Sequence record: OR525701.1
DNA: 64,000 nucleotides
Direction: 5' to 3' (one strand)
From: Escherichia phage vB-Eco-KMB38
Shown here one piece after another: positions 49,807 through 50,154 of this stretch (positions are counted from its first letter, which is position 1; every line of letters begins with the position of its first letter). The notes below the pieces were generated by a model, which searched no databases, was not told the origin of the DNA, and worked only from the letters and a program-made list of their open reading frames with translations. Made by a program: the position numbers and the translations under genes.

Positions 49807-50154
49807 TTAATATGGCTTTGCATCAAATTTTCTTTCAATTTCAGGCGTGAAATATAGTTCTTTACCACGCTTAGAAAAACGGCCAATAATATGATAATTA
49901 TTTTCGTCGAACGTGATATTACCGAGGTCCATAGCTTTTAACCAATCATCAATACTTCTGTGCAGTTTTATATCAAAATTCCAGTATTGAGAACTATTAC
50001 CACGGATACTACAAGCAGATTCAGTAAAACAACTACTATAAATCTTGTCTTTAGGAACTACTAATTGATAGACACCTTTAATAAACTGAGGACCTTGCCA
50101 CTTTGGCTGTTTCGCATCTTCTTCTAATAGAATAGGGTAATAATTAAAATTCAT
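49807..50154 (-). CDS. hypothetical protein (115 aa) inserted between frd and td
   Basis: ORF overlaps the frd 3' end by 11 nt; GGCGGAAAAT-ATG; no recognisable motif. Confidence 0.55.

Follow-up and report, generated by a model that had tools for sequence, protein, structure and literature searches.

The window analyzed here comprises 64,000 nt of Escherichia phage vB-Eco-KMB38 (OR525701.1), a Mosigvirus with 99.9% identity to Escherichia phages PTK and AlbertHofmann (Bas47). Between 48.6 and 52.8 kb, the minus strand carries, in this order, gene 32, frd.2, frd.1, an 80-aa ORF of the phrog_3183 family, frd, td.1, td, nrdA.2, and nrdA. The gene under study, td.1, is located at 49807..50154 on the minus strand (stop included) and encodes a 115-aa member of the phrog_1928 family; its ATG start codon is at 50154-50152, and 4 nt 5' of this codon lies a Shine-Dalgarno-like GGCGGA (50159..50164, minus strand), which is also found in T2 and T6. 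Upstream, frd (50144..50761, minus strand) encodes a dihydrofolate reductase (DHFR) of 205 aa with 86% identity to T4 Frd; downstream, td (48933..49793, minus strand) encodes a thymidylate synthase (TS) of 286 aa and is RB69-like (96% nt identity). From the stop codon of frd (50144-50146) to the td ATG (49793-49791), there are ~350 nt with one gene in between, and these coordinates bear out both the 115-aa ORF and the separation of about 350 bp described in the initial annotation. The start of td.1 overlaps the end of frd by 11 nt, i.e., the last 8 nt of a C-terminal extension of frd together with the frd stop codon, while td.1 and td are separated by a 13-nt spacer (49794..49806, minus strand) containing AGGTG, the ribosome-binding site of td. 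As initially described, td is intronless: it is a single uninterrupted ORF, the match to the Pfam model Thymidylat_synt covers positions 1-266 of 266, and an Rfam search of 48000-52000 matched no family, and hence no group I intron. The ATGA-type overlap between the frd stop and the td start, which was correctly ascribed to T4, is present in T4 and RB69 and absent from the window. In a pattern scan of the window, no terminator-like site was found between frd and td, the only hairpin in that stretch being a weak one (5 base pairs) within frd (50634-50622).

Several other features of this region are of note. The 80-aa ORF (50765..51007, minus strand) is similar to RB32ORF231c, has 95-97% identity to its T2 and T6 counterparts, and is not found in RB69; its longest reading, from a TTG start at 51046, overlaps frd.1. 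Directly downstream of gene 32, a strong GC-rich hairpin, GGGAGACTTCGGTCTCCC, is followed by a T-run (51799-51816, minus strand) and probably serves as the terminator of this gene. Another strong hairpin, with 10 base pairs, is situated between frd.2 and frd.1 (51285-51312). On the other side of td, nrdA.2 (84 aa, DUF5496) is the sole gene between td and nrdA (48590-48932), as in RB69; T4, T2, and T6 have an additional gene, nrdA.1 (DUF4326), in this interval.

Judged by its sequence, the 115-codon ORF is the already annotated T-even gene td.1 rather than a novel gene. This name is used in the T2H record AY262132.2 (ABI48932.1), and older annotations refer to the gene as RB32ORF229c. The window protein has 94% aa identity to T2H Td.1, which is also 115 aa long, and proteins 100% identical to it have been deposited from phages PTK and AlbertHofmann. 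The initial annotation stated that the ORF has no recognisable motif; this holds for Pfam and NCBIfam but not for PHROG, as the protein matches the phrog_1928 profile with an E value of 9.2e-36 (residues 4-111 over positions 2-125 of 126). Td.1 had no match in Pfam, NCBIfam, PADLOC, or PDB sequence profiles (built from two alignments), nor did it match defence-related models. A search of 1.84 billion representative proteins returned 18 matches, of which 2 are repeat-protein artefacts and the rest are ORFs of 99-119 aa from T4-like phages, giving 16 genuine clusters at 50% identity that share conserved motifs. Altogether, these sequence searches show that the phrog_1928 family is confined to T4-like phages.

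We found no paper on td.1 and no expression, interaction, or phenotype data; there is also no discussion of td.1 in Wilson and Edgell 2009 (PMC2790892), the paper accompanying the T2H record. In the databases, identical proteins go by the name 'hypothetical protein' or, in the case of the BASEL records, 'putative homing endonuclease'; the latter label is carried by AlbertHofmann, WilhelmHis, FriedrichMiescher, and ValerieMcCarty04. Elsewhere, td.1 is labelled 'dihydrofolate reductase (x2)' (ESCO58, APTC-EC-2A, and IsaacDaniel) or 'putative glucose-1-phosphate adenylyltransferase' (Shigella phage SF2-1). All three of these names are unsupported, and 'putative homing endonuclease' and 'dihydrofolate reductase' should not be propagated. 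In this sense, the finding is an ordinary one: the ORF is already on record as a 'hypothetical protein' for hundreds of T-even phages, and T4 and RB69, the two T-even models that have been studied best, happen to be those without it.

ORF length alone is weak evidence for a gene, as chance alone would give ~1.6 ORFs of 115 codons or more on each strand of the 64-kb window. Rather, we regard td.1 as a real gene because it is conserved. Window and T2 td.1 differ by 35 synonymous and 9 non-synonymous changes (dS 0.99, dN 0.033, omega 0.033), and T2 and T6 td.1 by 11 synonymous and 0 non-synonymous changes, while the other five reading frames of the same stretch contain 5-19 stops. An alignment of 19 family members revealed invariant Q16, W19, G27, G91, K95, and G97 and near-invariant N79, F93, and F102, and in the alignments the motifs KQxKW, HG(I/V)Y, GN, and IGRFxKxGxxxxF are all present in window Td.1. 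This pattern of substitutions shows that td.1 is a true gene, encoding a small protein under strong constraint. The alternatives of a spurious ORF or a decayed remnant of some known gene, which were considered initially and which the expected number of chance ORFs and the missing Pfam and NCBIfam matches might suggest, are ruled out by the conservation pattern (dN/dS, interrupted alternative frames, and the 16 clusters with conserved motifs) together with a confident AF2 model (pLDDT 89), and we assign them practically no weight.

Using tblastn, we found td.1 homologues in 581 phage records. Among these, 13 with at least 99% identity are window-type Mosigviruses, 349 with 90-95% identity are mostly Tequatrovirus, and 219 with less than 60% identity are Klebsiella, Enterobacter, Proteus, Serratia, Kosakonia, and Erwinia phages; most Tequatrovirus genomes have td.1. 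The gene is located between frd and td, on the same strand as both, in all 10 of the contexts inspected, which span at least six genera (Kanagawavirus, Jiaodavirus, Gelderlandvirus, Muldoonvirus, Kosakonia phage Kc304, Erwinia phage Cronus, and four metagenomic contigs). Importantly, td.1 diverges in step with frd: the paired td.1/frd identities to the window are 45/46, 37/44, 32/47, and 28/35%. In the distant genera, phrog_1928 is represented by two paralogues in tandem, of which the 'a' type has a short loop and the 'b' type a long loop, with an insertion of ~20 aa after the conserved Trp (retrieved loci L005 2498-3176, L007 2501-3156, L016 3001-3697, L018 3001-3685, L015 605-1301, and L019 2074-2812). 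In Erwinia phage Cronus, the longer ORF of the putative pair (144 aa) comes first; a Cronus protein of 144 aa is also a BFVD structural neighbour of the Td.1 model.

The tandem pair is sometimes followed by a phrog_9550 ORF of 68-70 aa, and phrog_9550 adjoins phrog_1928 genes in Muldoonvirus and in one metagenomic contig. Tequatrovirus and Mosigvirus genomes have no more than one of these junction genes, the window having a single 'a'-type copy. Three alleles occur within Tequatrovirus: an empty junction (T4, vB_EcoM_112, HY03, and G28), td.1 (T2, T6, RB14, and the majority), and the phrog_9550 ORF alone (fFiEco06, Shinka, and Sf21). In the last of these, a 68-aa ORF unrelated to td.1 has an ATGA overlap with frd and a TAATG overlap with td. 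The phrog_9550 ORF was seen at retrieved loci L009 1348-1554 (fFiEco06), L010, L008 2806-3018, and L022 749-955. When IMG/VR was scanned with patterns for each of the three alleles, the Tequatrovirus contigs returned were too few to be of use. Given that phrog_9550 and phrog_1928 genes adjoin in some phages, as many as three small genes may have been present at the ancestral junction.

The initial annotation noted that the frd C terminus is extended and overlaps the ORF. We confirmed both points; however, the extension is 11 aa instead of roughly 12 (50147..50179, minus strand), and the difference between the 205-aa Frd of the window and the 193-aa Frd of T4 is completed by one extra internal residue. 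The extension arises because an A5 run (50178..50182, minus strand) replaces the A3 run of T2 and T4, and the two extra bases shift the ancestral frd TGA out of frame. The same form of Frd, of 204/205 aa, is found in RB3, RB5-RB10, PhiZZ30, and others. Programmed frameshifting at this run was considered and dropped: 'T AAA AAT' does not conform to the canonical slippery heptamer, and the idea finds no other support. Of the 10 loci in which frd and td.1 are separate, 8 show an overlap of 1-20 nt between the frd stop and the td.1 start. Such overlaps or abutments imply that td.1 is transcribed together with frd and td, and from this arrangement we suggest that translation of td.1 is probably coupled to that of frd.

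In one case, the two genes are naturally fused in frame. The resulting 316-aa Frd::Td.1 protein (WP_146639004.1, linker NEITRGGN) is encoded on a 169-kb phage contig (GCA_002061505.1, contig MXST01000001.1, retrieved locus L023 1501-2451) and is named 'dihydrofolate reductase'. It originates from an A5 run at the frd stop combined with an A3 instead of an A4 run before the td.1 ATG; the fusion thus rests on two homopolymer-run indels, in four contigs that possibly derive from one sample. The fusion allele was found in none of 296 phage-database records. It probably accounts for the grouping of the 115-aa Td.1 with DHFRs in 90% clustering. In an AF2 model of the fusion based on a block-diagonal alignment, the Td.1 half has a pLDDT of 86-96, while the DHFR half is below 50 (pTM 0.41).

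The AF2 model of Td.1 itself (pLDDT 89.2, pTM 0.83) is a confidently predicted small β-barrel. By DSSP, it consists of strands at residues 6-12, 27-34, and 62-64, a helix at 68-77, a short strand at 80-82, and strands at 86-96 and 99-104, and this predicted order (β1-β2-β3-helix-β4-β5) fits an OB-like fold. The structure prediction suggested in the initial annotation yielded a predicted fold but no significant structural neighbour in the PDB, as Foldseek returned nothing below an E value of 0.2; the matches in BFVD are uncharacterised proteins of T4-like phages only. The invariant residues are concentrated in the β1-β2 loop (KQxKW) and the β4-β5 hairpin (GRFxKxG...F). In OB-folds, this loop and this hairpin form the usual ligand face, and the model suggests that the invariant residues of Td.1 could lie on a ligand face of this type. 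The family proteins are mildly basic (pI 6.8-9.4), rich in aromatic residues, and of uniform length (99-126 aa).

These properties bear on the possibility that td.1 is a free-standing homing endonuclease gene or the remnant of one, as implied by the label in BASEL and a few other records and by its presence or absence between conserved genes, which resembles that of the T4 seg and mob genes. However, none of 19 family members has a GIY-YIG, HNH, LAGLIDADG, or other nuclease domain at E ≤ 1 in Pfam and NCBIfam, no nuclease is among the structural neighbours of the model, which likewise shows neither a nuclease nor a DNA-binding fold, and the protein, at 115 aa, is a compact barrel instead of a truncated fragment. 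Together with the vertical divergence of Td.1 with frd, the lack of a nuclease domain, motif, or fold effectively refutes this explanation, and we consider it highly improbable.

The history of td.1 in the window differs from that of its surroundings. Among Mosigvirus records, ~139 have an empty RB69-type junction, including PhAPEC2, the exemplar phage of AlbertHofmann's assigned species, and ~13 have td.1. In gene-by-gene BLAST and a three-way sliding window comparison, the window has 95-100% identity to RB69 in nrdA, nrdA.2, td, frd.2, and gene 32 (96-97% for nrdA, nrdA.2, and td in the gene-by-gene comparison). Between ~49,790 and 51,160, by contrast, the identity is 80-98% to T2, while the alignment to RB69 fails or gives ~60%; frd, td.1, and orf231c match T2 and T6 with 86-97% identity, and RB69 either lacks them or has divergent versions. 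These data delimit a Tequatrovirus-type mosaic block of ~1.35 kb (49790..51160, approximate bounds) that comprises the phrog_3183 ORF, frd, and td.1, with crossovers at the conserved td start and, approximately, inside frd.1. The identity profile provides good support for a scenario in which td.1 would have entered the lineage of the window together with a Tequatrovirus-type frd, by recombinant replacement of the block and not by simple insertion. Such mosaicism around td.1 represents ordinary T-even recombination.

How, then, did the junction come to differ between T4 and T2? In T2, two copies of a 9-bp repeat, TAAATGAAA, lie 417 bp from each other, one at the frd stop and the other at the td start, and when one copy and the intervening DNA are removed, precisely the T4 junction, GTATATAAATGAAACAATACC, results. 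This junction motif is also that of RB69. In the window, the corresponding direct repeat, AAATGAAA, has its left copy at the ancestral frd stop (50173..50180, minus strand) and its right copy at the td start (49788..49795, minus strand). The spans of T4-type and T2-type junctions differ by 416-417 bp, and a six-frame HMM search of the T4 genome found no family member (best E value 0.88). Based on the deep synteny, the divergence that tracks frd, the direct repeats, and the span difference, we infer with good support that td.1 is ancestral at the frd-td junction and that the overlap in T4 and RB69 is derived. According to this model, a deletion between the short direct repeats, i.e., between the context of the frd stop and next-gene start and that of the td start, would have brought frd and td into abutment in T4 and RB69.

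The initial annotation, which took T4 as its reference, had instead proposed that a novel ORF was inserted in one lineage into a junction originally overlapping as in T4. The identical ATGA-overlap junctions of T4 and RB69 and the rarity of the td.1 allele within Mosigvirus fit this proposal, and the 8-9-bp direct repeats flanking the td.1 segment could pass for a target-site duplication. However, these repeats are conserved stop and start contexts (AAATGA and ATGAAA), homologues with 28-45% identity that track frd occupy the same site in distant genera, and the td.1 of the window came inside a homologous replacement block of 1.35 kb that also swapped frd. A transposon-like insertion with target-site duplication was rejected on the same grounds, as the phylogenetic distribution favours deletion. 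We therefore find an insertion unlikely. Compared across T-even phages, td.1 is common, being the td.1 of T2 and T6, and the abutting state of T4 is best read as a deletion; the claimed lineage specificity survives only in that td.1 is a minority allele in Mosigvirus. T4 is the exception at this junction, and a comparison with T4 alone is misleading.

To sample Tequatrovirus for td.1 and the td intron, 44 evenly spaced records were taken from a search with the T2 frd-td.1-td region. Among those with td.1, td is intronless in 26 and has the intron in 5, whereas among those without td.1 (empty or phrog_9550 allele), 3 are intronless and 10 have the intron. Absence of td.1 is thus associated with the td group I intron (Fisher p 2e-4, uncorrected for phylogeny). 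Strict exclusion of td.1 and the intron was rejected, as both are present in T6, RB9, and contig MXST01000001.1 and neither is present in RB69, although the statistical association remains. Because of this association and because the junction is within the range of co-conversion, which extends up to 2 kb (PMC2790892), we suggest that junction alleles hitch-hike with intron homing and that the junction allele is plausibly carried along by I-TevI co-conversion.

Taken jointly, the observations are best explained if td.1 is a genuine, ancestral gene that was imported into the window in a block and encodes a DHFR-linked binding protein, an explanation to which we assign a probability of roughly 0.55. 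In this explanation, Td.1 (~13 kDa) would be a non-catalytic β-barrel with a binding or adaptor role that is made in step with DHFR; its ligand could be single-stranded nucleic acid or a protein partner, and it would serve the thymidylate/dNTP-synthesis machinery of the phage. The link to DHFR draws on the invariant adjacency to frd, the co-divergence with frd, and the one natural Frd::Td.1 fusion; however, T4-like genomes are syntenic throughout, so that adjacency to frd is no proof of a functional link. Taken by itself, the specific proposal of a binding or adaptor role alongside the DHFR/TS part of dNTP synthesis, in which Td.1 might tether this machinery to single-stranded nucleic acid or to a partner protein, is tentative. 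td.1 is dispensable, because T4 has no copy and the junction of RB69 is empty.

The presence/absence polymorphism and the alternative cassette at this site fit a host-directed accessory gene equally well. According to this alternative, Td.1 would act in host takeover or against defence on a target in the host, its position would reflect inherited synteny only, and it would play no part in nucleotide metabolism. This would agree with the variation among close relatives, i.e., three alleles in Tequatrovirus and a mostly empty junction in Mosigvirus, with the dispensability of td.1, and with a small protein that lacks enzymatic motifs and is encoded in an early-gene operon. On the other hand, td.1 has remained at this one junction in at least six genera, with a divergence that matches that of frd, its omega of 0.03 at a dS of ~1 is unlike that of fast arms-race genes, and it matches no defence-related model. 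We regard a host-directed function as a possibility of about the same weight as a DHFR-linked binding function, each of them doubtful when taken singly.

A more speculative extension of the DHFR-linked binding function, rather unlikely as it stands, is that the DHFR/TS pair has a so far unrecognised OB-like partner in the Td.1 family, which might tether the enzymes of dNTP synthesis to single-stranded DNA or the replisome, or might regulate DHFR. If this is true, the partner was overlooked because the model phages T4 and RB69 have both deleted td.1, and the rare Frd::Td.1 fusion is a 'Rosetta-stone' trace of the partnership. In either case, strong constraint acts on Td.1, which is restricted to phages, lacks a significant structural neighbour, and is encoded between frd and td in all contexts inspected.

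Among known systems, the seg and mob genes of T4 offer one comparison, as they are likewise small and variably present between conserved genes of nucleotide metabolism (e.g., mobE between nrdA and nrdB). Like td.1, they also lie where co-conversion driven by endonucleases takes place (PMC2790892). td.1 differs from these genes in having no nuclease domain, motif, or fold and in its vertical divergence with frd over long distances. For the predicted fold, a possible comparison is with OB-fold nucleic-acid-binding domains (HIN, RPA/Teb1 OB, SSB, PriB, and S1). Closer still are the 'b'-type paralogues, such as gp197 of Enterobacter phage Q7622 and the 124-aa ORF of Kosakonia phage Kc304, which belong to the same family (HMM E values of 1e-22 to 1e-39) and have W19, HGxY, GN, GRFxKxG...F, and the frd-td location in common with window Td.1; they differ by the insertion of ~20 aa and by standing in tandem with an 'a'-type copy, whereas in the window the 'a' type stands alone.

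The closest comparison is td.1 of T2H, an orthologue with the same length, the same position between frd and td, and the same upstream Shine-Dalgarno-like GGCGGAAAAT-ATG context. In T2 and T6, frd ends 20 nt before td.1, whereas in the window, frd is 11 codons longer and overlaps td.1. The spacer between td.1 and td is 45 nt with a promoter-like box in T2 and T6 compared with 13 nt in the window. In the T2/T6 spacer (T2H extract 387-431), a TATAAT is preceded upstream by TAGCTTCA, which resembles a MotA box, and by sequence these elements are possibly a middle promoter for td; the spacer of the window (49794-49806) has no TATAAT/TAGCTTCA element. Finally, the orthologues reside in different genomic backbones, that of a Mosigvirus in the window and that of a Tequatrovirus in T2.
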